This document shows, piece by piece, positions 24,147 to 64,000 of a stretch of 64,000 nucleotides of DNA. Location: assembly GCF_053078305.1 (NCBI RefSeq), contig NZ_CP166879.1; one strand, written 5' to 3'. The translations under genes were made by a program, and so were the position numbers. Position 1 is the stretch's first letter. Each line of letters opens with the position of its first letter. The notes beneath the pieces were generated by a model. It saw only the letters and a list, made by a program, of their open reading frames with translations. It had not been told where the DNA came from and ran no database searches.

Positions 24147-25184
24147 TCAAGATTTATTCCCCCCTTTGCAAATCTTGCTCACTGTGCGCTCATCTGTATA
24201 CAAACTCAGGGCATCTTCCAGTGTCTGCGCTGCAGACTCCATACAGACATCAACATACCCCATGGTCGTTGTAAGACTCCTGTGTCCCAGTATGGATTTG
24301 ACCAGATGTAAATTACGTTCAGGATATTTCATCAGTCTGGTTGCCAGCGTATGTCTGAAACGATGTGGTGAAACAGGAAAACCACATTCTCGCGAAAGTC
24401 GCCGGAAAAATGAACGTACGGTCTGATGCGCCCGAACGGGACAGTACTGATATCTGTCGGCAGAGATCGGCTCACTGAAACGACAGACGTCAAAAAGATA
24501 GTCATCATCACCTGCCCCGCACTGACGGGCCCGCTCCAGCAGTTTTTCCATCGATACCTTCAGGGGAGCCACCAGAGGAACGCCCCATTCCCTGTGAGTT
24601 TTACTTCCCTCCAGCTTAAGATCAATTATGCTTTCATCCGGACAGACATCCCTCACACGGATATGCTTCAGTTGATTAAAGCGCATTCCGGTATAACGCA
24701 GAACATCCAGAACTGTCAGCCAGTACCAGGCAGGGTATATAGCATTGCGTCGACGACTATTCACCATGTTCTGCTCTTCCGCTTCTGCAAACCTCTGCAC
24801 AACCAGGTAAACCCTGAGCATCTGATTGTCACTCAGTGTCTTTTTCTTTTTTTCAGTACTCGCAACTGATGCTTCCACCAACGGGTTTTCTGTCTGAGGC
24901 AGCAGTTTCATCTTGATCCCGAATCCCATAATTGCCCGCAAGTGGGCCACCTTGTTATTCCAGGTCACCTCCCTGCGCTTCTGCTCTTTCAGGACATAAC
25001 GCCGGTATCGCTGAACATCACGGACAGTCACCTCCCCCGGCAAAATATCACCGATAAATTCCCTGAATACCCTGACAACTTTGCAGTAGCTCCACTCTGT
25101 ATCCGGCCGAAGATTCTTTGAAAAAAAGTACTCTTCCAGCAGTTGTTCCCAGGTGATTTTTGTGACGGAATCGTCATTCTGCAT
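24147..25184 (-). CDS. Tyrosine-type site-specific integrase (island integrase)
   Basis: Start MQNDDSVTKITWEQLL (ATG 25184); catalytic signatures TGMRFNQL, HRFRHTLATRL and LGHRSLTTTMGYV; adjacent to the tRNA 3' end. Confidence 0.85.
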   Translation of the reverse strand: MQNDDSVTKITWEQLLEEYFFSKNLRPDTEWSYCKVVRVFREFIGDILPGEVTVRDVQRYRRYVLKEQKRREVTWNNKVAHLRAIMGFGIKMKLLPQTENPLVEASVASTEKKKKTLSDNQMLRVYLVVQRFAEAEEQNMVNSRRRNAIYPAWYWLTVLDVLRYTGMRFNQLKHIRVRDVCPDESIIDLKLEGSKTHREWGVPLVAPLKVSMEKLLERARQCGAGDDDYLFDVCRFSEPISADRYQYCPVRAHQTVRSFFRRLSRECGFPVSPHRFRHTLATRLMKYPERNLHLVKSILGHRSLTTTMGYVDVCMESAAQTLEDALSLYTDERTVSKICKGGNKS

Positions 25185-25251
25185 TATATATTCCCCTTGT
25201 TTACTGTGCTCCCGCACTCTCCGGTCAAATTCTGCACATCATCGCCTTTAC

Positions 25252-34893: not shown

Positions 34894-35118
34894 ATGACAC
34901 GCAACGCAACGCAACGCAACGCAACGCAACGCAACGCAACGCAACGCAACGCAACGCAACGCAACGCAACGCAACGCAACGCAACGCAACGCAACGCAAC
35001 GCAACAATATGCTCGCCTGAACTCTCTCCGTCAAGTACCTCTACCTCCGTGCTTTCTGGAGGTACTGTATGAATATACGCAACAATCATCTACCGGGAAC
35101 AGAAACTCTTTTTTCTGA
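34894..35118 (+). CDS. Candidate leader ORF containing the pentanucleotide tract and overlapping the mod start
   Basis: ATG 34894 preceded by GAGG (34885-34888); reads MT(RNATQ)x7 through the repeat and ends at 35118, 50 nt beyond the mod ATG; coding status unproven. Confidence 0.35.
   Translation: MTRNATQRNATQRNATQRNATQRNATQRNATQRNATQQYARLNSLRQVPLPPCFLEVLYEYTQQSSTGNRNSFF
34899..35005 (+). repeat. Perfect pentanucleotide simple-sequence repeat (GCAAC)21
   Basis: 21 uninterrupted GCAAC units at 34901-35005 (tract with partial unit starts 34899), ending 63 bp upstream of the mod ATG. Confidence 0.97.
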
Positions 35119-37105: not shown

Positions 37106-37107
37106 TC

Positions 37108-40020
37108 ATGTCTAAAGGGTTCACATTCGAAAAAAATTTACCTCATCAAAAGGCTGGCGTTGATTCGGTAATGAATGTCTTTGTATCCGCCATACCTCAT
37201 CAGACGGATCATGTTGCAATTCGCCTGTTAGCTAATCCAGAACTGAATCTATCTGAACAACAATACTACAACAACATAAAAAATGTTCAGGAGTTCAATG
37301 GTATTGAGCACTCAAAAGATAATTACGATGCTAAAAGCAACGTAATTGATGTTTCTATGGAGACAGGTACAGGTAAAACTTATACTTACACCAAAACAAT
37401 TTTTGACCTGAACAAATCATTTGGTATTAACAAATTTATCATCATTGTTCCTACCCTATCGATCAAAGCCGGAACCGTTAACTTTTTAAAAAGCGATGCT
37501 ATAAAAGAACACTTTCGAGATGATTACGAGCGTGAACTAAAGACTTACGTTGTTGAAAGTCAGAAAAGTTCGGGTAAAAATACAAAATCGTATATGCCTC
37601 AAGCTATCCATGATTTTGTTGAAGCAAGTAATTTCAATAAGAAATATATACACATTCTTGTGATCAACTCAGGGATGATTAACTCTAAGTCTTTAACTGA
37701 CACTTATGATGTTGGCTTGCTTGATAATCAGTTTGATACCCCATTTTCTGCACTTAGTGCGATAAAACCATTCATTATCATTGATGAGCCTCATAAATTT
37801 CCTACTGGTAAAAAGACATGGGAACATATTCAAAAATTTAATGCCCAATATATCATCCGCTATGGCGCAACCTTTAGTGAAGGCTATAAGAACTTAGTTT
37901 ATCGTCTTACAGCCGTAGATGCCTTCAATGAAGATCTTGTTAAAGGTATTGATGCATACATTGAGGATATAGTTGGTGATGGTAATGCCAACCTCAAGTT
38001 GGTCAAATCTGACGGAAAAGAAGCTACATTTGAACTGAACGAAAATAATAATAAAAAAATTTTTAAGTTAGCCAAAGGTGAATCACTATCTAAGACGCAT
38101 AGTGCGATCCATGATTTAACTCTTGATGCTTTAAATAAGAATACAGCAGTGTTGAGTAATGGTATTGAGCTAAAAATTGGTAGTTCGATAAACCCCTATT
38201 CTTACGATCAGACACTTGCTGATAACATGATGCGTAAAGCTGTCAAAGAACACTTTAAGTTAGAAAAAGAGTATCTGACACAAAGGCCACGCATAAAACC
38301 TCTTACTCTTTTCTTCATTGATGACATTGAAGGCTATCGTGATGGTAATGATATTGCAGGAAGCCTGAAAACTAAGTTCGAAGAATACGTTTTGGCAGAA
38401 GCAAATGAACTGTTAAAAACAGAGAAAGATGAGTTTTACAGAAACTACCTTGAAAAAACTGTTAAGGATATATCTTCTGTTCATGGTGGTTATTTTTCAA
38501 AAGATAATAGTGATAAAGATGATAAAATTGAGCAGGAAATCAACGAAATCCTTCATGATAAAGAGCTTCTATTGTCTTTAGAAAATCCTCGCCGTTTCAT
38601 TTTCTCTAAATGGACGTTGCGTGAGGGATGGGATAACCCAAATGTCTTTCAGATTTGTAAGCTCCGTTCGAGCGGTAGCACCACATCTAAACTTCAGGAG
38701 GTAGGGCGTGGTTTACGTCTTCCAGTGAATGAATACATGTGCCGTGTGAAAAACCGCGATTTTACTCTCAACTATTATGTTGATTTTACGGAAAAAGATT
38801 TTGTTGATTCTCTTGTAAAAGAGGTTAATGATAGTTCTTTCAAAGAAACTGTTCCAGGTAAGTTTACTCAAGAACTTAAGGATAAAATCTTATCTCAGTA
38901 TCCTGAGCTTTCATCCAGAACACTCATGAATGAGATCTTTGATGCTGAAATTATTGATGATAATGAAAACTTCAAAGATTCCGATGCCTATAGCCGTTTA
39001 AAAGCAAAATATCCGGCTGCATTCCCTACCGGGGTGAAACCAACAAAAATAAAAAAAGCCACGGATGGAAAAAAGCGTACTAAAATGCGTATTGGTAAGT
39101 TCAGTGAGTTGAAAGAACTATGGGATTTGATCAATCAAAAAGTAGTAATTGAGTATAAAATAAATAGTGAAAATGAATTCTTATCCATTTTCAAATCATT
39201 CATGATTGAAGAAACAGATAGATTTACTAAATCAGGTGTTCATACTCGCATTGATAGAATTTATATTCATAATGATACGGCGATGTCGAAAAGTATCGTC
39301 AGTGACGATGATAACTTTGCTAAACTAAACACAATGAGCTATCGGGAATTTCTTGATAACTTATCACAAACTATTTTTGCTAAACACGATACCTTACATA
39401 AGGTTTTTTGTGATATAAAAGACACTATCAATATCACCGACTACCTGAACATTCAGACAATCAGAAAGATTAAATCTGGGTTTAGCAAGTATTTGTTGAA
39501 CAATTCATTTAACAAATTCAGCCTTGGATATAATGTAATTTCAGGCTCAATTCATCCTACAAAATTCACTAATGCAGACGGTAATCACCTGCATGAGGTA
39601 TTATCAGGTGATCTTGGAGTATTACAGGATAATACAAAAGCCCCCCTAGACTCTTATCTTTTTGAAGAAGTTTTTTATGATTCAGAGCTTGAAAGACTCA
39701 ATATAACAGACGGAGAGATCCACTCTGTTGCTGTTTTTACAAAGATACCGAAAAACTCAATTAAAATTCCAGTGGCAGGTGGATACACATATTCTCCTGA
39801 CTTTGCTTATGTTGTAAAAACAACAAAGGGTGACTACCTTAACTTTATTATTGAAACAAAAAATGTCGAAGGTAAAGAAAGTTTACGTAAAGAAGAACTG
39901 GATAAAATAAAGCATGCACAAAAACTTTTCGAACAGGTAAGTAAATCTGTAAAAGTAACTTTTATAACTCAATTCTCAGGTGACAGAATCCATGATCTGA
40001 TAAAAAATGTGATTCAGTAA
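37108..40020 (+). CDS. res: Type III restriction enzyme Res subunit (SF2 helicase-like ATPase/nuclease)
   Basis: 970 aa; Walker A TGTGKTYT, DEAH-like IIIDEPHKF; tightly coupled to mod. Confidence 0.9.
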   Translation: MSKGFTFEKNLPHQKAGVDSVMNVFVSAIPHQTDHVAIRLLANPELNLSEQQYYNNIKNVQEFNGIEHSKDNYDAKSNVIDVSMETGTGKTYTYTKTIFDLNKSFGINKFIIIVPTLSIKAGTVNFLKSDAIKEHFRDDYERELKTYVVESQKSSGKNTKSYMPQAIHDFVEASNFNKKYIHILVINSGMINSKSLTDTYDVGLLDNQFDTPFSALSAIKPFIIIDEPHKFPTGKKTWEHIQKFNAQYIIRYGATFSEGYKNLVYRLTAVDAFNEDLVKGIDAYIEDIVGDGNANLKLVKSDGKEATFELNENNNKKIFKLAKGESLSKTHSAIHDLTLDALNKNTAVLSNGIELKIGSSINPYSYDQTLADNMMRKAVKEHFKLEKEYLTQRPRIKPLTLFFIDDIEGYRDGNDIAGSLKTKFEEYVLAEANELLKTEKDEFYRNYLEKTVKDISSVHGGYFSKDNSDKDDKIEQEINEILHDKELLLSLENPRRFIFSKWTLREGWDNPNVFQICKLRSSGSTTSKLQEVGRGLRLPVNEYMCRVKNRDFTLNYYVDFTEKDFVDSLVKEVNDSSFKETVPGKFTQELKDKILSQYPELSSRTLMNEIFDAEIIDDNENFKDSDAYSRLKAKYPAAFPTGVKPTKIKKATDGKKRTKMRIGKFSELKELWDLINQKVVIEYKINSENEFLSIFKSFMIEETDRFTKSGVHTRIDRIYIHNDTAMSKSIVSDDDNFAKLNTMSYREFLDNLSQTIFAKHDTLHKVFCDIKDTINITDYLNIQTIRKIKSGFSKYLLNNSFNKFSLGYNVISGSIHPTKFTNADGNHLHEVLSGDLGVLQDNTKAPLDSYLFEEVFYDSELERLNITDGEIHSVAVFTKIPKNSIKIPVAGGYTYSPDFAYVVKTTKGDYLNFIIETKNVEGKESLRKEELDKIKHAQKLFEQVSKSVKVTFITQFSGDRIHDLIKNVIQ

Positions 40021-51346: not shown

Positions 51347-51922
51347 ATGGACTTCTCAACATTAATAACATTCTCTATTATAACCTTATCACAAACAGTA
51401 TCGATTGGTCCGGGGGTGGCATTAATCATATCTGAAAGTCTGACATATGGTGCAAAAAAAGCAATAACGACAAGTATATATATAAGATTTGGCGAAATTG
51501 TTGTCATGCTAGTCACACTATTTTCTATAGCACTGGCAATCAATTTAGAAAAACATCTTGACACAATAAAAACTTGTGGTGGTGGATATCTGATTTTTCT
51601 TGGTATTACTCGTCTCATCAAGAGAAAAGGATCTAAAGGAAACAAAGCAAATATCCCTTTTTTAATACCGATGCTCAATCCAAAGGCCTTTTTGTTCTTT
51701 GCTGCATTTATGCCATCATTCATAAAAAACAACAGTAACTTTAATACTGACTTTTTGTTACTTTGTATCATTTTTATAATTGTGTCATTACTCACTGACT
51801 TAATATATATATGTATATGTTTAACTATAAGAGGGCGTATAAATTCATCATTTTCAAAATATGTTAATTTTATCAGCTCTTTATTTATACTTTTAACTGG
51901 CGCATATCTGGTTTTTTTATGA
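51347..51922 (+). CDS. LysE/RhtB-family small-molecule exporter
   Basis: 191 aa, six predicted helices, SIGPGVALIISESL and NPKAFLFFAAFMP family motifs; starts 5 bp after the preceding gene. Confidence 0.7.
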   Translation: MDFSTLITFSIITLSQTVSIGPGVALIISESLTYGAKKAITTSIYIRFGEIVVMLVTLFSIALAINLEKHLDTIKTCGGGYLIFLGITRLIKRKGSKGNKANIPFLIPMLNPKAFLFFAAFMPSFIKNNSNFNTDFLLLCIIFIIVSLLTDLIYICICLTIRGRINSSFSKYVNFISSLFILLTGAYLVFL

Positions 51923-52070
51923 TATGCCGTCAGGGTGTGCTTCCTTACATATCACGCCCTCTTCCAGACGTCGCTGGTCGTCGCCCTCTGCGTCCCTTAC
52001 TTTCAGCCCCTCTGAGCATAATCGCCCCTCCAGAGGAGCCCATCACAACGACAATGCCAGCGGGTTAATT

Positions 52071-52643
52071 TTATCTGACCCGGCCTTCAGCCACATCCTT
52101 CACACGTTTAACTAATGGCTCAATAAATTTATCTTTCAGATGCCCCGGTGCCGGAGATGCATACGTTATATATATCCGACTTCCTTTGCCATTTTTTTCA
52201 AGTTCAAGCGTCAGATGATCATCAAACTCGCCACCATCCCAGTCACTGCCCATTTTATAATAACTACCGGGCATGGCATCCCACATATGCCCGTTCTGAC
52301 TTATTGCTGCTGCGGCCCACTTCCCGTTCGCATGTCCGTTATTACGAATCGCATCGACTTCTTCATTTGAATAAAACTTATAGTACCGTTTCAGTCTTCC
52401 CGCAGCTGTATCCACATCAACAGGGACTTCTATGACATGATCACGTTTCTCTCTTTTTGCCCGGGGTGCCTGAGACAGATATTTGAGATCATCATCTGCC
52501 TGGTTTACACCTACGTTCAGTACTTTTGTCACAGCAAATGCACCGTCACTTATCTGCCTGTTCAGCTCTGCAATTTCCTGTGCAGAACAGGCACTCAGCG
52601 CAACACACGAAGCACAAACGAGTAACATTTTTTTAGTCAGCAT
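52071..52643 (-). CDS. Putative lipoprotein of unknown function
   Basis: 190 aa; signal peptide with lipobox ALSAC. Confidence 0.55.
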   Translation of the reverse strand: MLTKKMLLVCASCVALSACSAQEIAELNRQISDGAFAVTKVLNVGVNQADDDLKYLSQAPRAKREKRDHVIEVPVDVDTAAGRLKRYYKFYSNEEVDAIRNNGHANGKWAAAAISQNGHMWDAMPGSYYKMGSDWDGGEFDDHLTLELEKNGKGSRIYITYASPAPGHLKDKFIEPLVKRVKDVAEGRVR

Positions 52644-53601
52644 GTCTTCATCCTCATCAGCAGCTCTTCAGTGGATAACATCCACAGTTACACCTGCATT
52701 TACGCGCAACAAAAACACCAGATGAAGATTTTATTCATTCAGCTCCGCTAAAAATTAATCTTGCTGTGGAATATCGGGAAAACAGGAAGTTACGTTAAAA
52801 GCCGAAGGAAAAACTCACAATCCCTTCTTCAATCAGCCTCTGAAAATCGGCTTTTCAGCATGTCTTCCCCCATTGTTCGTATACCCTGTTCGATGGATTA
52901 TTATTGATCCATATGATCGCTTCACGTAAACACGATTCTGGCTCCACACCATTCTGGACGCGATTGTTACCAAAAAAGACAACCATCACAAGACGTCACA
53001 GACGGTGCGTGCGCTTACTCCTGTATATCTGGCGCAACAGAATCTACCAGTGTAAACTCTCTATGCTTTTGCGCAGAAGCAGTGGGCCTGGGTTCGCTTA
53101 TGTCCTGCATCTACAAGCGAATGACTGACCAGAGACTCCCATATCTGGTCAGTCGCCCATTTTTATTTTCCCTATACACTCAGACTACAATAGCCGTAAC
53201 AAACAGCATACCCCCAGTCATAGTGGCCCCTTTATCTTCTTATGGCTTGTCTGTGGTACTGGAGATAGAGCAACTGTGGGAGTACTGTTATGGCCCCCGG
53301 TAAGAAAAACTCTTGCTTAATGTACAGCAGAACTGTTCCCAGAAAGAAGCCTGTGCATATTTTCATAGAAGGAGATCACCCATAACGGCGTTTTTCACGG
53401 TAATACACGCCAGGTAAAGAATGCTGGATTATCAATCAAAGCTCCGCACAGGAAGCGCTTATGCCGTAGAGCGCCCTCTGGAGAAAAGTGCTACTTCTTG
53501 TCGATTCAGACTAGTTCAGGAAATTATACGAAAATATTACCTGAATGAGCTAAATGTTATTTACCTTCCTTTCTGTTCATTGTAAATTTTTTCTTGCTAA
53601 C

Positions 53602-53620
53602 GCAAATCATTATCATTACG
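53602..53620. promoter_or_regulatory. Candidate Fur box upstream of the TonB-dependent receptor gene
   Basis: GCAAATCATTATCATTACG: three NAT(A/T)AT-like hexamers (AATCAT TATCAT TACGAT) matching the Fur consensus GATAATGATAATCATTATC core, 21 bp upstream of the start. Confidence 0.5.
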
Positions 53621-53640
53621 ATTTTAGAAAAGGGAAATTT

Positions 53641-55689
53641 ATGAAGAACAAATATATCATTGCTCCGGGCATTGCCGTGATATGTTCTGCAGTCATATCA
53701 TCAGGTTATGCCAGTTCTGATAAAAAAGAAGATACGCTTGTTGTTACTGCCTCCGGCTTCACTCAGCAACTCAGAAATGCACCGGCCAGTGTTTCAGTCA
53801 TTACTTCAGAGCAACTGCAAAAAAAACCGGTTTCAGACCTGGTCGATGCGGTAAAAGATGTTGAAGGGATTAGTATCACCGGTGGGAATGAAAAACCGGA
53901 TATCAGTATACGTGGGTTAAGTGGCGATTATACATTGATTCTGGTCGATGGACGACGTCAGAGTGGTCGGGAATCCAGACCAAACGGCAGCGGCGGTTTT
54001 GAAGCCGGATTTATCCCTCCTGTGGAAGCAATTGAGCGTATTGAAGTTATACGTGGCCCTATGTCTTCCCTGTATGGTTCCGATGCTATCGGAGGAGTTA
54101 TTAATATCATAACCAAACCTGTTAATAACCAGACATGGGATGGCGTACTTGGGCTTGGGGGAATTATTCAGGAACATGGGAAATTTGGTAACTCAACCAC
54201 GAATGACTTCTACCTGTCAGGCCCATTGGTTAAGGATAAACTTGGTCTTCAGTTATATGGAGGAATGAACTATCGCAAGGAAGATAGTATCTCTCAGGGA
54301 ACACCAGCAAAAGATAATAAGAATATAACGGCAACACTCCAGTTTACTCCGACTGAAAGCCAGAAGTTTGTTTTTGAATACGGAAAAAATAACCAGGAAC
54401 ATACATTAACACCTGGTGATTCTCTTGATGCCTGGACTATGCGGGGAAATCTTAAACAACCAAACAGTAAAAGAGAAACACATAACTCACGTAGTCACTG
54501 GGTAGCAGCATGGAATGCCCAGGGCGAAATACTGCATCCTGAAATTGCTGTTTATCAGGAGAAAGTTATTCGTGAGGTTAAATCTGGTAAAAAAGATAAA
54601 TATAATCATTGGGATCTTAATTACGAGTCAAGAAAACCGGAAATAACCAACACGATCATAGATGCAAAAGTGACGGCATTTCTGCCGGAAAATGTGCTGA
54701 CCATCGGAGGTCAATTTCAGCATGCAGAACTCCGTGATGACTCAGCCACAGGTAAAAAAACGACAGAAACACAGTCTGTTTCAGTTAAACAGAAAGCTGT
54801 TTTTATAGAAAATGAATATGCTGCAACGGATTCTCTCGCCCTGACTGGAGGGCTGCGCCTCGATAACCATGAAATCTATGGCAGTTACTGGAATCCAAGA
54901 TTGTATGCTGTTTATAACCTGACCGATAATCTCACTCTCAAAGGAGGGATCGCAAAAGCATTTCGGGCCCCTTCGATTCGTGAGGTCAGTCCTGGATTTG
55001 GAACACTGACGCAGGGTGGTGCCTCTATTATGTATGGAAACAGGGACCTGAAACCGGAGACCAGTGTAACCGAAGAGATCGGTATTATTTATAATAATGA
55101 CAGTGGTTTTTCAGCAAGCGCGACTCTGTTTAATACAGATTTTAAAAATAAGCTGACCAGTTACGATATAGGCACAAAAGATCCAGTCACTGGGCTAAAC
55201 ACTTTTATTTATGATAATGTGGGTGAGGCAAATATCAGAGGTGTGGAGCTTGCAACTCAGATTCCTGTGTATGATAAATGGCGTGTATCTGCAAACTATA
55301 CATTCACTGACTCCCGTCGAGAAAGCGATGACGAAAGTCTCAATGGCAAGTCGCTGAAAGGGGAACCTCTGGAAAGAACTCCCAGACATGCAGCCAATGC
55401 AAAACTGGAATGGGATTACACTCAGGATATTACATTTTATTCATCTCTGAATTATACAGGAAAACAAATCTGGGCAGCACAAAGAAATGGTGCCAAGGTT
55501 CCCCGTGTTCGTAATGGATTCACTTCTATGGATATTGGTATGAATTACCAGTTCCTGCCAGGCACGCTGATTAATTTTGCCGTACTTAACGTCACAGACA
55601 GAAAGAGCGAAGATATCGATACCATTGATGGTAACTGGCAGGTCGATGAAGGACGTCGTTACTGGGCTAATGTAAGAATATCCTTCTGA
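53641..55689 (+). CDS. TonB-dependent outer-membrane siderophore receptor (IrgA/Iha/CirA-like)
   Basis: Start MKNKYIIAPGIAVICSA (ATG 53641, AAGGGAAA upstream); TonB box DTLVVTAS; plug motifs IRGPMSSLYGSDAIGGVINIIT; C-terminal aromatic residue (RYWANVRISF). Confidence 0.9.
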   Translation: MKNKYIIAPGIAVICSAVISSGYASSDKKEDTLVVTASGFTQQLRNAPASVSVITSEQLQKKPVSDLVDAVKDVEGISITGGNEKPDISIRGLSGDYTLILVDGRRQSGRESRPNGSGGFEAGFIPPVEAIERIEVIRGPMSSLYGSDAIGGVINIITKPVNNQTWDGVLGLGGIIQEHGKFGNSTTNDFYLSGPLVKDKLGLQLYGGMNYRKEDSISQGTPAKDNKNITATLQFTPTESQKFVFEYGKNNQEHTLTPGDSLDAWTMRGNLKQPNSKRETHNSRSHWVAAWNAQGEILHPEIAVYQEKVIREVKSGKKDKYNHWDLNYESRKPEITNTIIDAKVTAFLPENVLTIGGQFQHAELRDDSATGKKTTETQSVSVKQKAVFIENEYAATDSLALTGGLRLDNHEIYGSYWNPRLYAVYNLTDNLTLKGGIAKAFRAPSIREVSPGFGTLTQGGASIMYGNRDLKPETSVTEEIGIIYNNDSGFSASATLFNTDFKNKLTSYDIGTKDPVTGLNTFIYDNVGEANIRGVELATQIPVYDKWRVSANYTFTDSRRESDDESLNGKSLKGEPLERTPRHAANAKLEWDYTQDITFYSSLNYTGKQIWAAQRNGAKVPRVRNGFTSMDIGMNYQFLPGTLINFAVLNVTDRKSEDIDTIDGNWQVDEGRRYWANVRISF

Positions 55690-55702
55690 GAGAATATAGA
55701 TA

Positions 55703-55725
55703 ACCTGAGGCCGTGCGCCTCAGGT
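55703..55725 (+). terminator. Weak hairpin after the receptor gene (no clear U tract)
   Basis: ACCTGAGGC-cgtgc-GCCTCAGGT. Confidence 0.3.
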
Positions 55726-56362
55726 ACCAGTATAGTAATCAGTAACGTCAGCTTCCAGGTTGTAATGCTTTTAATTTTGATAAAAATAAACTTAATAAAT
55801 TACATTTGTTAAATATTGATAATTTTAATTTGGTTTTATTACTCCAGTTATACTCACACTCTATCTTTACACAATTCATCACCATTACACCTCCATAGCC
55901 TGTTGATTTAAAAGATTTAATTTCCTGTGAAACAATCAGGCCTGTATGAACCTGATTATACCACAGAATCTTTTAAGTTATTTAAATTTAACTCTCGGGC
56001 TTTTCTGTCAGTAAAATCAGAAAAATTGCAGGATTTCGTTTTTTTTGCTGCGAAGTGAAATGTATCTCATTTTTACTGCCTTCGCCAGTGCGTCAGGCAA
56101 TGGCAGGTAGTGTACCTGCATTCTGCTGTAACGCGTAATGTCGGGTAGTTTACTTAAACTTAATATGTTTTATGTTTGCATTATTATAAATCACTTTATT
56201 GCCTTTTGTCTGCTTTTTAATGGTTCCCGTTTTGTTCACTTCTGGCTTTATAAAAAATGGATGCTGAAGAAATGAAGGTAGTCCACCTTACATAATATTC
56301 ATGCATGATTTTTATGCTATTCCGACTGAGTGGAAGAAAATAAAGGAGAAAAGAGGGTATAT

Positions 56363-59300
56363 ATGAACCTCAGAAAAAAACATATCTGTATAGCCATATC
56401 ACTTGTTCTTAATCCGGCATCCATATCACAGGTCAGTGCTCAGGCAGATACAAATAAGTTAACTGTTGAAGTTGATGAAACCAGCCTTGGCCATGATGTC
56501 TATGGCGATGACTGGAAGAGCATTGAAATAGGTACAACGAAATTTACAGCAAAAGATGAATCAAAGGGAATTAATTTCGACCATAAATCACCGGTGGCTG
56601 AAGGACGTAACTCTATCGCGATTGGTACCAGTGCAGAGGCTGGAGGTGACATTAGCACGAAGGAAGGTTTGTACACAGGCGAGTCTATTGCGATAGGAGC
56701 GAAAACGAAAGCAACTAAAGAACAGTCAATTGCAATAGGTGGCGATACCAAAGCTACCGGATGGGGGGCTATTGTTATTGGTGGGGATGATTTAACTCCT
56801 TTGCATGGTAAGACTTATGGTCGGGAAAAAATAGAGAATGGCTATCTTGCATCGGAAGCGCAGGGGGATGGCAGTATTGCGCTGGGCAGCAGAACTTTTG
56901 CTAAAGGCGAATTGTCAGTATCGCTTGGTTCGGTGAGTTCTGCTGAGGGGATGGCCTCGAATGCAATTGGAGCCACGGCGGAAGCTAAAGGGGATATGGC
57001 GACTGCGGTTGGTTTTAATGCGCTGGCTAATGCCGGTAATGCTCTGGCCGTTGGTAGTCAGTCCTCTGCAAATAAAAACGATGCTCTTGCTGTTGGTTCA
57101 GAGGCAAATGCCGCTCAGAATGAAACGGTTGCCCTGGGGCATGGAGCAACCGTTACTGTCGCAAAGGGGAACGTGTCCATCGGCGCTGACTCCAGGGATA
57201 AGCAGGCACAAAAAGTAACAGAGGCTAAGGTCAGAACTAAAAGAGGCGCGGAAGTCACATATAGTGGCTTTGCCGGAAATAACGCAGCATCAGTAGTATC
57301 TGTTGGTGATGCGGGTAAAGAGCGTCAGATTGTTAACGTGGGGGCGGGTGCGATTTCTGACACAAGTACAGATGCCATTAACGGTAGTCAGTTATATGCG
57401 ATAGCGAAGACACTGAAAGATGACCTTGATGCCATTAATCCGACGTGGACGCTAAAGGATGATAAGGGAGGTTCTGCGACTATTAATGGTGGGAAGGATA
57501 ATAAGAATGGTAACACTTTAACTGTTAAAGGTGATGGAGATATTGCAGTTACTGTTAATGATAAAGGAATGACGATTGACGGAACAACGCTGAAAAATGA
57601 AATAAAAAATGATGCCATCAAAATTAAAGGTGGAGATGGTAAGACGCTGACGAAGAGTCTTGGTGACAATGTCGAAATCACTGGCAAAGGCCCAATAAAA
57701 ACCCAGGTGGCTGGAGATAAACTGGAGATTTCAGCAGAGACAGCTTCGTTGCCTGTAAATGGTGGTAACGGGAAGATTACAGTAAACAATGGTGATGGCG
57801 ATAAACTTGTTACTGCGAAAAACATTGCTGATGCCATAAACCAGTCTGGCTGGAAAATTAAAGCGGATAAAGATACCGGTGGTGTTATCGAGGGAAATGG
57901 TCAGGGAACAGAAACACTGATAAAACCCGGTGATATGGTTACGCTGAAAGCCGGTAAAAATCTCAGCGTGAAACAAAGTGGTGGTGATTTTACATTCTCT
58001 GTTATTGATACTCCGTCATTCAGCAGTGTTCAGCTGAATGGAAAAGGAAATAACGGAAGTGTAACGCTCTCATCCGAAGGTAATAAGCTGACATTGTCAG
58101 GCGGTAATGGTGCCGGACAAAATGGTGTTGTTATCAGTGGTGTGGCAAGTGGACTGGAAGGTAAGGAACTTTCGACGTTAACGAATACTGATAAAGAGAT
58201 GAAAAATGCCGCCAGTGTTGCAGACCTGAAAACGGCAATTGATGGTGTGTCCTCCAGTATGCAGGGTGCAGGTTTCGCACTGAAAGACTCTGATGATAAG
58301 GAAGTGAAACAGTCTCTTGGGCAGGCGATTAAAGTATCCGGGGACAGCAATATCACCACCACAGCCATCACCAATGGGGATAAGGGGTTAAAAATATCCC
58401 TGAATAATGACCTGAGCGTTGGGAGCAATAATACTCCCGGCAGCATCAAAGTTAACGGGGCTGATGGTAAGGAGGCTGTGAGTCTGAATGGTCAGGATGG
58501 CACGATTAAACTGACATCCTCGCCTGCTGCGGGTGGAAAGTCTGCGTCAGCAACCATTGCTGTTAATGCAGGCAAAGGTGGATTAACAGATGCTGCCGGT
58601 ACCACGAAGACACGTCTGACTTATACCCCGGATGGAAAATCACCGGCAGAAGAGCTGGCGACCATGAATGACGGTCTTTCTTTTGAGGGTGATGACGGAA
58701 AGGTTATTCATAAAAAACTGAATGAAAAACTGACCATCAAAGGTGGTGCAGAGAAGAATGCTGAAGTGACTGACGGCAATATCCGGGTTGATAATGATAA
58801 TGGCGGGCTTCTGGTGAGGATGACCAGAAACCTCCGTGATTTGGCCAGCGCGGTTTTTGGTACAGGTGGGCAGATAACAACAGTTAATGATAAAGGCATC
58901 ACAATCACAACACCTGCTGCGGGCGGTGGTCAGGGGAATACGGTTTCCCTTACCGGCTCCGGCCTGAATAACGGTGGAAATCAGATAACCAGTGTGGCCA
59001 GTGGTCTGAACGGCACTGCGCTTGCTGACGCCGGTGGAGATGTTCTGAATAATGCGGCCAATATCGGTGACCTGAAAAATGCTCTCCGTGACAGCAGTGC
59101 GGCACTGGTGAATACCGGCTTTGGTCTGCAGGCGGATGACGGAAGCAAGGTGAACACGTCTCTCGGGAAGCATATCACGGTTGGTGGTGACGGGCAGAAT
59201 ATCAGCACGACTGTTCAGAACGGGAGCCTGACGGTCAGACTCGCTGATAACATTCGCCTGGGAGATGACGGCAGTGTTTCTGTCGGCGGAACCCGGATGG

Positions 59301-60694
59301 ATAAAAACGGACTGACCATCAAGGATGGCCCGTCAGTGACTGTGAACGGTATTGATGCGGCTGGCCGGGTTATTTCCGGCGTGAAAGACGGGGTGAATGA
59401 CCAGGACGCCGTTAACGTTTCACAACTGAACCGTGAAATCAGTCAGGCAACGGCAGCAACGACCTGGGCACTGAAGACTGAATCCGGTGATGAGGCTGTT
59501 GCTGTTTCCTCCCAGACGGTTGAAGTCCGTCACGGACAGAATACCCGGGTTTCAGCCATCAGTAAGGATGATAAGGGAAATTACAGCTATGAGATTGATG
59601 TGACGGGGATTCCGGTGGAGTACACCGACAGCCAGGGGAACCCGCTTGTCAATATTGGTGGTCGTTTTTACACACAGACCGAAGATGCTGCGACCGGGAA
59701 ACTGACAATGACGCCGGCTGAGCCGGCCCGTGTCAGAATAAGCAGTGAGCAGCCTCTTGTTCTGACAAATGTGGCGGCCGGAAATGTGTCACCGGTATCC
59801 ACGGATGCGGTTAACGGGAGCCAGCTGGCATCTGCAGCCAGAATTGCTGGCGGTGATAATGTTGTCTGGAAAGACGGAAAAGCAGCGCTGGCTCCTGACA
59901 CCTTCAGTGAGCTGACAACTGCAGGTGGCGGTAAGACAACGGTGAATGGTGGTGTACATAAAACACCGGATAATGTGGCTGATGCAGTGAATATGCTGAA
60001 CCGTGAAGGCACGAAGTATTTTAAAGCTGCCTCTTCCGGTCAGGCAGCAAAAGCGGAAGGGCGTGACAGTATTGCTGTCGGACAGGGGGCCGTTTCCCGG
60101 GGACAAAACAGCATTGCCATGGGTAATGGTGCTGAAGTCACGCGTCAGGCTGCTGCCGGCTCTGTTGCAGTTGGCAGCCATGCCCGTGCTGGCCGCGCGA
60201 ATACCGGGACTTATGCCCTGAACGGTCAGGCTGTTGCGGGACGTACCGGAAGTGATACTGCGGTGGTTTCTTTTGGTCAGCCGGGACAGGAGCGTCAGCT
60301 GCAGTCAGTGGCACCGGGTGTGTTGTCTGCGAATTCAACGGATGCCGTCAATGGCAGTCAGTTGCATGCAACTAACCGTCAGGTTGCCGGAAATACACAG
60401 GCGATAAACACCCTCGGGAATAAATTCAGTCAGCTGAGCTACCGGGTGGAAGAGCTTAACCGGGATATCCGTGGTGTTGGTGCATCGGCTGCGGCCATGA
60501 GCGGGATACCTCAGGCCTATCTGCCGGGTAAAAGTCTGATGGGGCTGGGTGTCGGTGGATATGGTGGTGAAAGCGCCATTGCAATAGGGGTGTCCCGAAT
60601 CTCCGATAACGGTAAGATGATAATGAAACTGAATGCAGGTCAGAACACCCGGGGTAATTTCTCCGTCGGTGCCGGTGTGGGCTGGCAGTGGTAA
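56363..60694 (+). CDS. Large trimeric autotransporter adhesin (UpaG/EhaG-like)
   Basis: Start MNLRKKHICIAISLVLNPASISQVSAQA (ATG 56363); many head/neck repeats (SIAIGTSAEA, AVGFNALANAGNALAVGSQSSA, NAIGATAEA); C-terminal YadA anchor ending GAGVGWQW. Confidence 0.85.
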   Translation: MNLRKKHICIAISLVLNPASISQVSAQADTNKLTVEVDETSLGHDVYGDDWKSIEIGTTKFTAKDESKGINFDHKSPVAEGRNSIAIGTSAEAGGDISTKEGLYTGESIAIGAKTKATKEQSIAIGGDTKATGWGAIVIGGDDLTPLHGKTYGREKIENGYLASEAQGDGSIALGSRTFAKGELSVSLGSVSSAEGMASNAIGATAEAKGDMATAVGFNALANAGNALAVGSQSSANKNDALAVGSEANAAQNETVALGHGATVTVAKGNVSIGADSRDKQAQKVTEAKVRTKRGAEVTYSGFAGNNAASVVSVGDAGKERQIVNVGAGAISDTSTDAINGSQLYAIAKTLKDDLDAINPTWTLKDDKGGSATINGGKDNKNGNTLTVKGDGDIAVTVNDKGMTIDGTTLKNEIKNDAIKIKGGDGKTLTKSLGDNVEITGKGPIKTQVAGDKLEISAETASLPVNGGNGKITVNNGDGDKLVTAKNIADAINQSGWKIKADKDTGGVIEGNGQGTETLIKPGDMVTLKAGKNLSVKQSGGDFTFSVIDTPSFSSVQLNGKGNNGSVTLSSEGNKLTLSGGNGAGQNGVVISGVASGLEGKELSTLTNTDKEMKNAASVADLKTAIDGVSSSMQGAGFALKDSDDKEVKQSLGQAIKVSGDSNITTTAITNGDKGLKISLNNDLSVGSNNTPGSIKVNGADGKEAVSLNGQDGTIKLTSSPAAGGKSASATIAVNAGKGGLTDAAGTTKTRLTYTPDGKSPAEELATMNDGLSFEGDDGKVIHKKLNEKLTIKGGAEKNAEVTDGNIRVDNDNGGLLVRMTRNLRDLASAVFGTGGQITTVNDKGITITTPAAGGGQGNTVSLTGSGLNNGGNQITSVASGLNGTALADAGGDVLNNAANIGDLKNALRDSSAALVNTGFGLQADDGSKVNTSLGKHITVGGDGQNISTTVQNGSLTVRLADNIRLGDDGSVSVGGTRMDKNGLTIKDGPSVTVNGIDAAGRVISGVKDGVNDQDAVNVSQLNREISQATAATTWALKTESGDEAVAVSSQTVEVRHGQNTRVSAISKDDKGNYSYEIDVTGIPVEYTDSQGNPLVNIGGRFYTQTEDAATGKLTMTPAEPARVRISSEQPLVLTNVAAGNVSPVSTDAVNGSQLASAARIAGGDNVVWKDGKAALAPDTFSELTTAGGGKTTVNGGVHKTPDNVADAVNMLNREGTKYFKAASSGQAAKAEGRDSIAVGQGAVSRGQNSIAMGNGAEVTRQAAAGSVAVGSHARAGRANTGTYALNGQAVAGRTGSDTAVVSFGQPGQERQLQSVAPGVLSANSTDAVNGSQLHATNRQVAGNTQAINTLGNKFSQLSYRVEELNRDIRGVGASAAAMSGIPQAYLPGKSLMGLGVGGYGGESAIAIGVSRISDNGKMIMKLNAGQNTRGNFSVGAGVGWQW

Positions 60695-60718
60695 CAGGGA
60701 AAAGCAAGGAGAAATGTA

Positions 60719-61498
60719 ATGTTATTTAGTCGAATGATGATGACGGGTGTGCTGTCCCTGATGCTTGCAGGATGTGGAAATCTGAGTCATGTCACGGATG
60801 AAGGAACGACGGAAGAAGTGGTATGGCCTTCTCCGGAGAAGGTGATGTTTAATCATGACGGAACACAGAAAGGTTCGTGGCCACTGCCAGAAAAGTTACG
60901 TCAGATAAAGGCGGGTATGAATAAGGACCAGATTTATCAGCTGGCGGGGAGACCACACTTTGCTGAAGGGATGTCTGGTGTAAGGGAATGGGATTACCTG
61001 TTCAACTTTACCGGACCGGAGGGGGATTATACCTGCCAGTACAAGATACTGTTTGACCGGAACATGGATGCCCGCTCTTTCTACTGGAAGCCGGAAAACT
61101 GTCTGCCGGAGGCAGAGACAGCAGAATACAGGGAGTCAGTCCCCGGTGATATATTATTTGATTTTGATTCATGGACTCTGACAGAGAGGGGGCGTGATGC
61201 GCTTTCCCGTGTGGCAGAGAAGTTTCAGGCGGGTCATGTTGTCGGGGTGAAGATAGAAGGATTTACGGACCATCTTGGCGGGCAGGCGTATAACCGGCTC
61301 CTGTCAGAGAAACGGGCGGAATCAGTCAGGGGGTGGTTTATTGCCCGGGGATTCAGGGCTGAAAGGATACATGCAACGGGCCGTGGATATGATGCACCAG
61401 TGGTGTTCTGCCCGGATGTGGAGGGCGAAGCACTGAAGGAATGTCTGCGCCCCAACCGCAGGGTTGAAATAACCGGGGAAACATCAGTGACTGATTAA
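60719..61498 (+). CDS. OmpA-C-domain lipoprotein (peptidoglycan-binding), co-oriented 24 bp downstream of the adhesin
   Basis: Lipobox LMLAGC; C-terminal OmpA-like domain (ILFDFDSWTL, FTDHLGGQAYNRLLSEKRAESV, RPNRRVEI). Confidence 0.8.
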   Translation: MLFSRMMMTGVLSLMLAGCGNLSHVTDEGTTEEVVWPSPEKVMFNHDGTQKGSWPLPEKLRQIKAGMNKDQIYQLAGRPHFAEGMSGVREWDYLFNFTGPEGDYTCQYKILFDRNMDARSFYWKPENCLPEAETAEYRESVPGDILFDFDSWTLTERGRDALSRVAEKFQAGHVVGVKIEGFTDHLGGQAYNRLLSEKRAESVRGWFIARGFRAERIHATGRGYDAPVVFCPDVEGEALKECLRPNRRVEITGETSVTD

Positions 61499-61522
61499 CA
61501 ATAAAGTGCCCCGGGAACTAAT

Positions 61523-61555
61523 GCCAGTCAGTTCAGCAACTGACTGGCTCTTTTT
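61523..61555 (+). terminator. Rho-independent terminator after the adhesin-lipoprotein pair
   Basis: GCCAGTCAGTT-cagc-AACTGACTGGC followed by TCTTTTT. Confidence 0.7.
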
Positions 61556-61612
61556 CGGGGCTGTGGGGTATTTCCAGGGAGCCTGTTTAGGAATCTGTGT
61601 AAATGCCTTTTC

Positions 61613-62134
61613 TCAGAAGTGACCGTCCAGGCGGTCACCGAACTCGATAATAAAGCGGCTCATTGCCATTCGCCGGTTTTGCCATTCTACAACCTGCTCC
61701 ATCACGGCATCGGTGACCTTTGATATCAGTGCCGGTGAAACATCTGCGTCATACAGCTCTTTGAACGCAGCAGCGATCTCACGGGTGGTCATCCCTTTGG
61801 CATACAACGAGAAGATCTGGTTATCCATCCCAGTAATACGGGTCTGATTTTTCTTTACCAGTTGTGGTTCGAAGGTACCGTCACGATCGCGCGGAGTACG
61901 CAGTTCCAGTGGACCGTCGCCTGTGATAACGGTCTTTGTGGAATAACCGTTGCGGGAGTTAGTTCCCGGTTTGGACTGATTTTTCTCATACCCAAGATGG
62001 TGTGTCATCTCTGCATTGAGAGCGGCTTCAACGCTGATCTTTTTCAGTAGACGGTCAAACTGGCTGAGGTCTTCAGGGGTTTTGAGGTTTTTGGCCAGTT
62101 CGTTAGCCAGAGCCTGTAACTGTTTTTCGTCCAT
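61613..62134 (-). pseudogene. Truncated IS256-family (mutator-type) transposase, N-terminal fragment only
   Basis: 173 aa matching an IS256-family N-terminus (NGYSTKTVITGDGPLELRTPRDRDGTFEPQLVKKNQTRI, YAKGMTTREI) then terminating; the catalytic DDE region is absent. Confidence 0.7.
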
Positions 62135-62182
62135 AAATTAACCTTCATTTGATGCTTGATTGAACATATCAAAATCAGGCAA

Positions 62183-63560
62183 TTACACAAATCTATGTAC
62201 AGGCTCTTTCCAAGGCCTCTCCTTTACCACTCTCGGGAAGCCCCTTTCCCTTCTTGTCGGTAATTTCACAAGTTGTCCCATACTTGCAAGATCGCGCATC
62301 AGCCCCGGTATACGTCCCGGTGAAGCGCCCTGCAATGTCATCACCATTCCGCATGATTCTGAGAAACTCAGTTGATTCGGCCAGTAACCTTTCAGATGTT
62401 CCGCCATTTTAATCATCTGACATCTTACCAGATTATAAGCCAGTAAGACACCCCACAGCTCTTGCTCCACAAGCTCCGGCTTTTTACAGCGTCAGCCTGC
62501 TCAGTTGCATCGTCTGTTTTATCTCCCTGTATCCCAGTTCAATTTCCCGGCGATGACTGTACAGATCCGCCATTTCTCCCCCGGGGAAGCGCATGGCGTC
62601 CGTCATCGACGTCAGCAGATGGCAGACTTCTCCTTTGCGCGTCACGGTCAGCAGGCGGGCTGTCACCTCATTTCCCAGTCCCGGCCACTTTTTTCGTGCC
62701 TGCGGGCTGGTTTTCAGCTTCACCAGATGATCGCCTTTACCCAGTTTTCTGATCTCTTCATATTGCGCTCCCTTTCTGAGAGGGATCATCCAGTGGCGGT
62801 GTTCTCCCACCAGGCTCCAGGCATTTAACAGTCCCAGTGAGTAATAACCTTTATCCATTAACGTCAGGGTGTTATCGCCGGTTTGTTCTATAAGTTGCTC
62901 AGCAAGCTCATTTTCGCTGTTCTTCATCGTGCCGAAGGCTCAGCCGTAAGCAGATGGCTGGTCAGTTCCATCTGGCAGACTATTTTGACCTGCGGGTAGA
63001 GCGCCGGGTTGCCGGCATGTATCTGGCGGGGGAAGGCTGCATCGTTCTCTGGTGTATCCGGTGTGCGCCAGAACATACCATCGATGGCCAGCAGGGTCAG
63101 GCCGCATCAGTGCGGATGCGGCGTGGCGTTATGCCAGAGCTGCGCTGTTTTCGTGAACACGCGGCGGACAGCCTCACTTCCCAGGTGCTGGCGGGCCTGA
63201 ATAACGGCACTGGGGGCAACGAAGGGGCGATTGCCGGCAGCATGATGTCCAGGCGATTCACAATCTGGTGAAGGGGCTCTTTACGCTCAAGCGCCATGCC
63301 AACAATACACCAGACCATCATTTCGAGGGGAAGACGGCGCTTGCGTAGCGTTACCGTACCTGATTCGGCAAGGCAACGAGAGATGAGTTCGGGGTCGAGG
63401 TAATCCCCCAGAGAAGCCAGTGGGTTACGCAGAGAATCGTAACGGGATACCAGATCAAGGGCCTGTCCAGTGTGCATAAAAAATCCGGAAACGAGTGAGC
63501 GTTTCCGGATTCTTACACAACCACTGGATCGGTCAACTGATCCTTAACCGATCGGCATTA
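62183..63560 (-). mobile_element. IS4 insertion sequence copy with a disrupted transposase
   Basis: Transposase split across 63097..63477 (MHTGQALDLVSRYDSLRNPL), 62484..62927 (DKGYYSLGLLNAW) and 62183..62470; IS4-type terminal sequence CCTTAACCGATCGGCATTA at 63542-63560; the other end not identified. Confidence 0.75.
63478..63510 (-). terminator. Terminator-like hairpin inside the IS4 end, upstream of its transposase start
   Basis: ATCCGGAAACG-agtgag-CGTTTCCGGAT with an A run on the plus strand (T run on minus). Confidence 0.45.
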
Positions 63561-63590
63561 CGGCATTGCCGGGGTCAGACTAAGCATCTT

Positions 63591-64000
63591 TTAGACGTTG
63601 ACGCCGTGCTGGGAAGCAAGCGCTGACAGGCCACCGGAAAAACCCTGACCGACAGCTTTAAACTTCCACTCAGCGCCATGGCGATACAGTTCACCGAAGA
63701 CCATTGCGGTTTCAGTTGAGGCGTCTTCAGACAGATCGAAACGGGCAATTTCCGCGCCGTTATCGTTGTTGTAAACGCGCATGAAGCTGTTGCTCACCAT
63801 GCCGAAATTTTGTTTACGCGCTTCTGCATCATAGATGGTAACGGCAAATACCAGTTTTTTGACGTCAACTGAGACTTTTGCCAGATCGATTTTAATTTGC
63901 TCATCGTCACCATCGCCTTCACCGGTACGGTTGTCACCCTGGTGCTCTACTGCGCCATCAGGGCTGGTTTTATTATTGAAGAAAATGAAATGGGCATCTG
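63591..64000 (-). CDS. TerD-family tellurium-resistance/stress protein, 3' portion; 5' end beyond window
   Basis: Frame open to the window edge; C-terminus [83 protein letters not shown] is characteristic of TerD/TerE/TerZ. Confidence 0.8.

Follow-up and report, generated by a model that had tools for sequence, protein, structure and literature searches.

Nested dead insertion sequences, IS1414 within IS4, at the join of an adhesin module and a ter module in Escherichia coli

Results

We observed that positions 61519–63560 of the window, the whole 64,000-nucleotide stretch of DNA that was analysed, are a nested pair of dead insertion sequences, an IS1414 element inside an IS4 copy, placed between two convergent intact genes, an OmpA/TpgA-like gene on the plus strand and terE on the minus strand (Table 1). 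The IS4 copy has no target duplication and is flanked on each side by half a terminator hairpin, the two halves coming from different hairpins; these facts support the conclusion that it marks a rearrangement junction between an adhesin module and a ter module. IS1414 is nested in IS4 because the last 60 bp of IS4 (61519–61578) lie beyond its far side and, as this detached tail belongs to the same element, the feature starts at 61519 and not at 61613. The junctions recur in the independent complete genome of E. coli JNEC-KY171, the closest genome, and in 16 public contigs (NCBI, ENA, Logan), which excludes an assembly artefact. The original prediction, of two decayed insertion sequences side by side between the adhesin module and a TerD-family gene, was right about the decay and the placement and wrong about the anatomy.

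Table 1. Features at the junction, in window coordinates
Feature	Position	Strand	Basis
OmpA-family gene (BamE + OmpA domains, TpgA-like), intact	60719..61498	+	Pfam, gene order
Left IS4 flank, 20 bp past the OmpA/TpgA-like stop	61499..61518	+	comparison with Z1323MEC0001 allele
Decayed IS4 copy, both ends kept	61519..63560	-	KE41 IS4 alignment, ends read directly
Detached IS4 terminal segment, 60 bp	61519..61578	-	match to KE41 IS4 nt 1366–1426, 98.4%
Left 8-bp target duplication of IS1414, TTTCCAGG	61571..61578	.	comparison with uninterrupted IS4
IS1414-like element (IS256 family), 628 bp	61579..62206	-	KE41 IS1414 alignment; same site in JNEC-KY171
173-aa transposase-derived ORF	61613..62134	-	translation comparison, Pfam Transposase_mut
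Right 8-bp target duplication of IS1414, TTTCCAAG	62207..62214	.	one G>A change
IS4 main body with decayed insG	62215..63560	-	global alignment, frame-repaired translation
Right IS4 flank, 30 bp past the terE stop	63561..63590	-	comparison with O157 (Xuzhou21)
terE 3' part	63591..64000	-	Pfam TerD, identity to O157

The anatomy and the lesions of both elements were observed directly, using as references the intact IS4 copy of E. coli KE41 and the copy annotated as IS1414 by RefSeq in the same genome. The window segment 62207–63560 aligned with nt 1–1374 of KE41 IS4 at 96.1% identity and the segment 61519–61579 with nt 1366–1426 at 98.4%, IS1414 interrupting IS4 at nt 1358–1366. Without the nested element and one copy of its duplication, the IS4 is 1406 bp long (reference, 1426 bp). 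Its termini, TAATGCC...GGCATTA, were read directly; both terminal repeats are present, each with one substitution. Measured against the KE41 copies, neither insertion sequence is truncated at an end, and only IS1414 has a target duplication.

The transposase gene insG starts with an ATG at 63477, and its pieces lie in different minus-strand frames over 62183–63477; the fragments match the Pfam families Nterm_IS4 (E 4.7e-22) and DDE_Tnp_1 (E 8.2e-16). The gene carries three frameshifts in total and a nonsense mutation, W124*, from G>A at 63107; its deletions are of 1 bp at about 63236 and about 62941, of 5 bp at about 62488 and, in frame, of 12 bp at about 62344, and another 1-bp deletion lies 5' of the ATG at about 63484. 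The detached segment holds one IS4 inverted repeat and the final insG codons, and here the stop codon has been lost through T>G at 61534. Compared with KE41, the IS4 has 33 substitutions and five deletions (about 2.3% divergence), and the frame-repaired InsG differs from the 442-aa InsG by 15 missense changes, one nonsense change and the mutated stop codon. RefSeq labels the identical IS4 copy in JNEC-KY171 'frameshifted; internal stop'. Hence the predicted splitting of the IS4 transposase across frames held upon re-examination of the frameshifts, as did the decay. With these lesions and the IS1414 insertion, the IS4 copy is thoroughly dead and has no intact transposase frame.

IS1414 has kept both inverted repeats, GAGCCTGT...ACAGGCTC, which align at 61579 and 62206. 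Its 533 bp corresponding to nt 1–533 of KE41 IS1414 are 96.6% identical, and the 96 bp corresponding to nt 1220–1315 are 97.9% identical. Between them is an internal in-frame deletion of 687 bp, with its junction at 61674, that takes codons 154–382 and with them the DDE catalytic core and all of the astA region. From the translation comparison, the 173-aa ORF consists of transposase residues 1–153 joined, with the frame kept, to the last 20 residues of the native protein; it matches Pfam Transposase_mut (E 3.1e-37) only over profile positions 16–158 of 379, and the NCBIfam IS256 model at 126.9 bits, under the 150-bit cutoff. What had been taken for an IS256-family transposase cut to its N-terminal third is instead an element with an internal deletion, both ends and its native C-terminus.

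Insertion sequences of the IS256 family are expected to make 8–9-bp target duplications. We found TTTCCAGG on the left of IS1414 and TTTCCAAG on the right, matching at 7 of 8 positions (one G>A, also present in JNEC-KY171), where the uninterrupted IS4 reads TATTTCCAGGGCCTC, with a single TTTCCAGG. IS1414 is a simple insertion within IS4 with its own 8-bp duplication and 60 bp of IS4 tail beyond it; it does not abut IS4, as had been proposed, and does not mark a junction of its own. In JNEC-KY171, the identical site holds an intact 1315-bp IS1414 with a 402-aa transposase and identical junctions (locus L001, 15180–16494). As this nearest relative keeps the intact element, the 687-bp deletion is recent and not old. 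Its junction and the exact ORF occur in no complete E. coli genome, and the IS1414 deletions of other genomes differ in size; among public contigs, the exact 173-aa ORF has one genomic context only.

The IS1414 of KE41 encodes EAST1, with 37 of 38 residues matching; for that of JNEC-KY171 the match is 34 of 38, and the ATG start is missing. The astA (EAST1) ORF, which in IS1414 is embedded in the -1 frame of the transposase gene, is absent from the copy in the window, its region falling inside the 687-bp deletion. IS1414 is an IS256-family element with astA/EAST1 inside its transposase gene (McVeigh et al. 2000, cited in PMC12585946), and its copies are reported to be frequently decayed by deletion (PMC12585946).

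The absence of an IS4 target duplication and the origin of each flank are likewise direct observations. The left flank ends in ...GCCCCGGGAAC and the right flank starts with CGGCATTGCCGGGG, and no duplication joins them; IS4 copies at seven other loci (L002, L007–L012) all have perfect duplications of 11–14 bp. The left flank ends in the left arm of the terminator hairpin of the OmpA/TpgA-like gene, AAAGTGCCCCGGGAAC, at the IS4 end, and the right arm is missing. In E. coli Z1323MEC0001 the allele, with which the left flank is collinear, is IS4-free and uninterrupted, GTGCCCCCGGAGCAATTCCGGGGGC; the hairpin is whole, with a 9-bp stem when folded, and is followed by MFS and iol genes. The right flank carries the beginning of the intrinsic terminator of terE, with its first arm and its loop, GACCCCGGCAATGCCG, and lacks the second arm and the U-run; the homologous place in O157 (Xuzhou21) reads GACCCCGGCAATGCCGGGGTTTTTTTT, a 9-bp stem then 8 U, and the right flank is collinear with it as far as the IS4 end. 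Both hairpins fold as strong stems. We read the missing duplication as a post-insertion rearrangement, and not as non-membership in IS4.

The other IS4 sites share a pattern, an A-run followed after 2–4 nt by a GC-rich palindrome inside the duplication, and both inferred targets match it. The fit of the left site is looser, as the flank stops at the hairpin loop, whereas the duplication is centred on the hairpin at four IS4 sites of the hairpin type, namely three from other genomes and the one inferred at terE. Similarity of 12–25 bp to the left flank at the IS4 loci H4, H5 and H12 was put down to shared target preference and not to shared ancestry. We also rejected foreign DNA as the source of 61477–61518: this allele occurs naturally at the 3' end of the gene and is uninterrupted in Z1323MEC0001.

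The OmpA/TpgA-like gene, whose best NCBIfam match is TpgA (E 1.5e-34, below cutoff), is the last of a module of ireA, a trimeric autotransporter gene and the OmpA gene, and the same gene order is also present in other genomes. On the other side, terE closes a terZABCDE operon whose other genes lie past the window end. As predicted, exactly 30 bp separate its stop codon (63591–63593) from the end of IS4 at 63560, and the gene itself runs off the window. We identified terE from Pfam (TerD, E 2.5e-61), synteny and DNA identity (94.3% to the O157 gene that immediately follows terD); NCBIfam gave no family at E ≤ 1e-5 for the full-length TerD and TerE proteins. The complete gene, found in the 100%-identical contig described next, encodes a TerD-family protein of 191 aa.

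The expectation of a ter cluster downstream was borne out. JPQG01000007.1, 100% identical to window 51613–64000, continues with terE, terD, terC, terB, terA and terZ in order (domains TerD, TerD, TerB, TerC, TerD, TerD, then ATPgrasp_Ter, PRTase and StiP), and JNEC-KY171 has the same ter gene order, plus terW. On these likenesses, terZABCDE is predicted to be a tellurite-resistance operon. There is no terF past terE at the window locus; this need not stem from the junction event, as terF of O157 is also truncated.

The left-flank allele was found in two complete genomes only. A 24-mer from the left flank, TGATTAACAATAAAGTGCCCCGGG, had no matches in a scan of one genome per species. In a search of PLSDB plasmids with 61380–61518, most alignments end at query position 97, with two extending to 98 and 100, just short of the 42-bp variant end; this end is therefore not plasmid-borne in PLSDB. 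Of 5,426 complete E. coli genomes, JNEC-KY171 alone has the IS4–terE junction, and no PLSDB plasmid has it. Consistent with this distribution, neither presumed parental IS4 insertion with a full duplication was recovered from the complete E. coli genomes or PLSDB.

Discussion

We consider it quite probable that the locus holds two dead insertion sequences, one nested in the other, at a module junction with a four-step history, of which a recombination route through two IS4 copies, and the order of events before the last step, are the most likely reading. Initially, IS4 copies would have entered GC-rich palindromes just downstream of A-runs, as is the usual habit of IS4, one in the terminator hairpin of the OmpA-like gene and another in that of terE. 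Homologous recombination between these directly oriented copies could then have joined the adhesin and ter modules; alternatively, an adjacent deletion mediated by an IS4 end of one copy would give the same outcome. Such a step would leave one hybrid IS4 with no duplication, mismatched half-terminators and no terF past terE, and the two-copy route implies parental AAAGTGCCCCGGGAAC-IS4-GCCCCGGGAACAATTCC... and AAAACCCCGGCATTGCCG-IS4-CGGCATTGCCGGGG arrangements. In a third step, an IS1414-like element would have inserted into insG at its 3' end with an 8-bp duplication, and IS4 would have gathered its inactivating mutations; the recombination, this insertion and the decay may have come in any order. 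Finally, and recently, the 687-bp in-frame deletion took out the catalytic core of IS1414 and the segment with astA, in the window lineage only. Recombination of direct IS copies with deletion of the DNA between them has been documented in E. coli (PMC5009759).

The chief competitor of the two-copy route is a single IS4 at one terminator, followed by a transposase-driven adjacent deletion or rearrangement in which its end attacked the other terminator. This explains the missing duplication and the mismatched flanks equally well, places the new joint at a sequence fitting the IS4 target pattern, and agrees with the failure to find a second parental insertion. The observations fit a one-copy adjacent deletion or inversion as well as they fit the two-copy route. 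We regard the one-copy reading as unlikely. IS4 transposition is rare, and mutation-accumulation lines gave 8 IS4 insertions and 0 recombinations (PMC5009759), although the strain used has a single IS4 copy.

It is extremely improbable that IS4 simply inserted into a pre-existing OmpA–terE junction and that point mutations later erased the duplication. The element is old enough to have gathered the substitutions and deletions counted against KE41, but that divergence is too low to erase an 11–13-bp repeat; the 13 bp that border IS4 on the left have no in-register resemblance to the 13 bp that border it on the right, each flank is collinear with one half of a known hairpin, a different one on each side, and lacks the second half, and seven other IS4 copies keep perfect duplications. 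A reading of two separate end-truncated remnants, each cut by recombination and left side by side, is very improbable as well. The ORF map, in which a 173-aa transposase fragment adjoins IS4 fragments, suggests it, as does the Pfam match, limited to the N-terminal 40% of the Mutator-type transposase; the alignments refute it, with both IS1414 inverted repeats and the native last 20 residues of the ORF present, an 8-bp duplication bracketing IS1414, and the missing IS4 end found at 61519–61578 on the other side. The idea that both remnants mark an old junction thus holds for IS4, with its two half-terminators and no duplication, and fails for IS1414, a simple insertion with a recent deletion.

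As proposed earlier, both elements are non-functional, IS4 through its lesions and IS1414 through loss of its catalytic core; neither can make an active transposase any longer, and the flanking genes are untouched. As both of these genes have lost half a terminator hairpin, transcripts from either side may enter the IS sequences. It is conceivable, though highly unlikely, that the 628-bp IS1414 could act as a non-autonomous, MITE-like element mobilised in trans by full-length IS1414, since both inverted repeats and an open 173-aa frame are kept; the protein made from it might attach to the ends of IS1414 and so curb IS1414/astA amplification. The retained N-terminal part of the transposase is presumed to be DNA-binding. 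No sign of mobility was seen, the exact ORF having a single context among public contigs and none in complete E. coli genomes.

The whole locus is ordinary mobile-element debris at the join of two E. coli genomic-island modules. Its importance beyond annotation is small. It gives exact coordinates for the joining of an adhesin module (ireA, trimeric autotransporter and OmpA/TpgA-like partner) to a tellurite-resistance module in a tRNA-Phe island of E. coli. It also illustrates that ORF fragments alone mislead, alignment to full IS references turning two truncated elements side by side into a nested pair. Two features, the 687-bp deletion and the hybrid IS4 without a duplication, are specific to the lineage and could be of use in strain typing.

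Compared with IS4 (insG) of E. coli K-12, the window copy has 96% DNA identity over the whole 1426 bp, the same TAATGCC termini, the same Nterm_IS4 and DDE_Tnp_1 domains and, in both flanks, A-run and GC-palindrome targets like those of other copies, but it lacks the 11–14-bp duplication, its frame is broken, its stop is lost and IS1414 is nested in it. The retained 629 aligned bp of IS1414 are 96.6–97.9% identical to the KE41 copy, with the same inverted repeats and an 8-bp duplication, whereas codons 154–382, the DDE core and astA are gone. The ter genes follow the order terZ-A-B-C-D-E of terZABCDEF in E. coli O157:H7 (OI-43/48) and IncHI2 plasmids, with the same divergently placed ATP-grasp/PRTase/HAD/StiP/terW set. 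Past terE, O157 has a truncated terF and then iha, whereas the window has a terminator split by IS4 and no terF. Together with its downstream 30 bp, terE is 94.3% identical to O157, and the window ter genes belong to a divergent lineage of alleles, with 94% identity to O157 and 91.6% to the plasmid copies.

Nested insertion elements beside the TerD-family gene

The ORF map of 61.5-64.0 kb contained three components, each on the minus strand, and together with the domain matches it established that the IS256-type transposase, IS4 and TerD-family objects named in the original prediction are real. As alignment references we used intact copies of IS1414 and IS4, which lie near one another in E. 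coli KE41 (locus L002). IS1414 retains both inverted repeats (GAGCCTGT...ACAGGCTC), with TTTCCAGG adjoining it on the left and TTTCCAAG on the right; the uninterrupted IS4 has a single TTTCCAGG. These flanking copies form an 8-bp target duplication in which one base has since been substituted. Because its ends split the IS4 segments and this target duplication surrounds it, IS1414 is nested inside IS4, into which it transposed 60 bp from the IS4 end, within the final codons of insG, the IS4 transposase gene. The predicted arrangement, in which an IS256-family remnant abuts IS4, was therefore replaced upon alignment to the intact KE41 copies, and the feature, thought to start at 61613, spans 61519-63560, starting ~94 bp further left. 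IS1414 is a plain insertion and marks no junction.

Features of the IS1414-IS4 region; IS4 nucleotides are numbered as in KE41, and transposase lesions are listed after frame repair
Feature	Window position	Strand	IS4 nt	Evidence or detail
173-aa ORF	61613-62134	-		Mutator/IS256-type transposase family, profile positions 16-158 of 379, E 3e-37
IS4-transposase fragments, several, differing frames	between 62183 and 63477	-		Nterm_IS4 E 5e-22; DDE_Tnp_1 E 8e-16
TerD-domain gene, crosses window end		-		E 2.5e-61
IS4 segment	62207-63560		1-1374	alignment
IS4 segment	61519-61579		1366-1426	alignment
IS1414 ends, between both IS4 segments	61579-62206			alignment
IS4 transposase lesion				W124* nonsense
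IS4 transposase lesions			327 and 623	1-bp deletions
IS4 transposase lesion			1077-1081	5-bp deletion
IS4 transposase lesion			1226-1237	12-bp deletion, in-frame
IS4 transposase lesions				missense changes, n=15
IS4 transposase lesion				stop codon mutated
IS4 transposase lesion			1358-1366	IS1414 insertion

KE41 (L002 6001-8752) has a second, independent IS1414-IS4 pairing, where the intact IS1414 extends exactly up to the 11-bp target duplication flanking the intact IS4; two pairings in all are too few to show a preference of IS1414 for IS4 ends.

Internal deletion of IS1414 and decay of IS4

The nearest complete genome is that of E. coli JNEC-KY171 (NZ_AP045167), with 99.0-99.8% identity across the region (98.96% over 61001-61674 and 99.83% over 61674-64000). 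At exactly identical junctions it carries an intact 1315-bp IS1414-like element with a 402-aa transposase (L001 15180-16494), compared with which the window copy is missing 687 bp, the junction being at 61674. The 173-aa product consists of transposase residues 1-153 and the native last 20 residues, joined in frame (...VVEWQNR followed by RMAMSRFIIEFGDRLDGHF). Lost with the deletion were the DDE core and the segment whose -1 frame in IS1414 encodes astA (EAST1), and no astA remnant is left in the window copy. When compared with EAST1, astA of the KE41 IS1414 matched at 37/38 and the homologous frame of the JNEC-KY171 IS1414 at 34/38; the latter is probably a non-expressed astA variant, because GGG (Gly) replaces its ATG start. 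According to a 2025 survey, most astA-associated IS1414 copies have decayed via deletions or mutations (PMC12585946).

The deletion junction of the window was found in no complete E. coli genome; four such genomes hold IS1414 with internal deletions of other sizes. The exact 173-aa ORF occurs in 16 public contigs; the window's genomic context recurs in all four of those whose sequence was retrieved. Because both ends and an open 173-aa N-terminal gene are retained, the 628-bp derivative could, though this is unlikely, act as a trans-mobilisable element or a transposition inhibitor; no sign of its mobility was found.

The window IS4 differs from that of KE41 by 33 substitutions and five deletions, has one substitution in each terminal repeat, and is thoroughly inactivated. 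Every lesion is common to JNEC-KY171 (0 gaps and 4 mismatches over 2327 bp), whose IS4 copy is annotated in RefSeq as 'frameshifted; internal stop'.

IS4 joins the halves of two terminators

At all seven other IS4 loci whose flanks were read (L002 and L007-L012), perfect 11-14-bp target duplications were present. The window IS4 has no target duplication; its left flank ends ...AATAAAGTGCCCCGGGAAC and its right flank starts CGGCATTGCCGGGGTCAGAC. The right flank is collinear with E. coli O157:H7 as far as the last base before IS4, and in O157:H7 the terE stop is followed by GACCCCGGCAATGCCGGGGTTTTTTTT, a 9-bp stem and then 8 U. The window IS4 lies inside this hairpin, the second arm and U-run of which are gone. 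On the other side, most other genomes are homologous to the adhesin module only as far as 61476, and the remaining 42 bp (61477-61518) represent a naturally occurring allele of the OmpA-like gene's 3' end. In E. coli Z1323MEC0001 this left-flank allele is uninterrupted (94.7% identity), and the hairpin GCCCCCGGAGCAATTCCGGGGGC comes after it, then MFS and iol genes; the window retains the left hairpin arm, before IS4, and has lost the right one. The two IS4 ends thus adjoin halves of different terminators, that of terE on the right and that of the OmpA-like gene on the left. Both inferred targets fit the pattern of the other sites, namely an A-run, 2-4 nt and a GC-rich palindrome within the duplication.

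An adjacent deletion mediated by IS4 would be an alternative route to this junction, and it is inseparable from recombination between two IS4 copies, because neither parental insertion is kept by any genome or plasmid in the collections searched. That two IS4 copies in direct orientation recombined is the simplest explanation, and events between directly oriented IS copies are a documented class in E. coli (PMC5009759).

Two alleles exist for the final 7 codons and terminator of the OmpA-like gene (window 61477-61518; comparison locus L017 8001-8057). The window allele (...GETSVTD*) is present in only 2/5,426 complete E. coli genomes. In the common allele (...GQSVR*) the hairpin is another one, GCCCCGGAATGTCCGGGGC, and a T-run comes after it. 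In three other genomes (L007, L008 and L009) IS4 lies within terminator-like hairpins between genes, and its duplication is centred on the hairpin loop, as in AAACCC[CGGCCATATGCCG]GGGTTTC between cgtA and dacB; the terE site (63561-63575) is of the same form. An older report is said to give AAA-N20-TTT as the IS4 target consensus.

The tellurite cluster continues beyond the window

Exactly 30 bp separate the terE stop codon (63591-63593) from the IS4 end, as had been predicted for the TerD-family gene. Contig JPQG01000007.1 (GCA_000736735.1) matches window 51613-64000 at 100% identity and extends past it through the remainder of terE (191 aa when complete) to terD, terC, terB, terA and terZ, followed by divergent ATPgrasp_Ter, PRTase and StiP genes; JNEC-KY171 has this gene order, plus terW. 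Since terD to terZ follow in both, inspection of the downstream sequence decided in favour of the anticipated ter cluster. No terF follows terE, and in O157:H7 terF is likewise just a fragment.

Island context

The window represents a tRNA-Phe island (tRNA at 23876-23951, with an integrase gene adjoining) that is largely collinear with the island of JNEC-KY171; the tRNA and the adjoining ORF are its attachment end. The ORF directly downstream of tRNA-Phe (GAA), 24147-25217, occupies the position of the JNEC-KY171 island tyrosine recombinase, after which TraI-domain and UvrD-helicase genes follow in that genome; the core genes upstream of the JNEC-KY171 island are cutA, dsbD and dicD.

The adhesin module comprises ireA, a 1454-aa YadA-like trimeric autotransporter, some relatives of which are annotated Sab, and an OmpA-family protein. 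The gene for the latter (60719-61498) encodes BamE and OmpA domains, and its best NCBIfam match, end-to-end, is TpgA (E 1.5e-34; 119 bits, below the 350-bit cutoff). TpgA is a peptidoglycan-binding partner of trimeric autotransporter adhesins, and the OmpA-family product is probably the anchoring partner of the adhesin.

In the large autotransporter gene ~500 bp (56796-57293) do not align to JNEC-KY171 and the rest is just 97% identical, with 21 gap openings, which suggests repeat or stalk variation in this adhesin. A second, shorter YadA-like autotransporter gene (28448-30124, 558 aa) has internal repeats of ~350 bp (29082-29742), their number unlike that in JNEC-KY171. A type III restriction-modification pair (35069-40020) consists of Mod (678 aa, PADLOC MTase_III E 1e-233) and Res (970 aa, REase_III E 0); both genes fall within a ~6.5-kb segment (34.2-40.7 kb) where JNEC-KY171 has subAB, for subtilase cytotoxin, and the sialic-acid cluster nan.

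Taken together, the IS debris was recognized correctly in the original prediction and its anatomy was partly misread. Both elements, IS4 and IS1414, are already known, as are the adjacent ter operon and the processes of nested insertion, internal deletion and IS-associated rearrangement.
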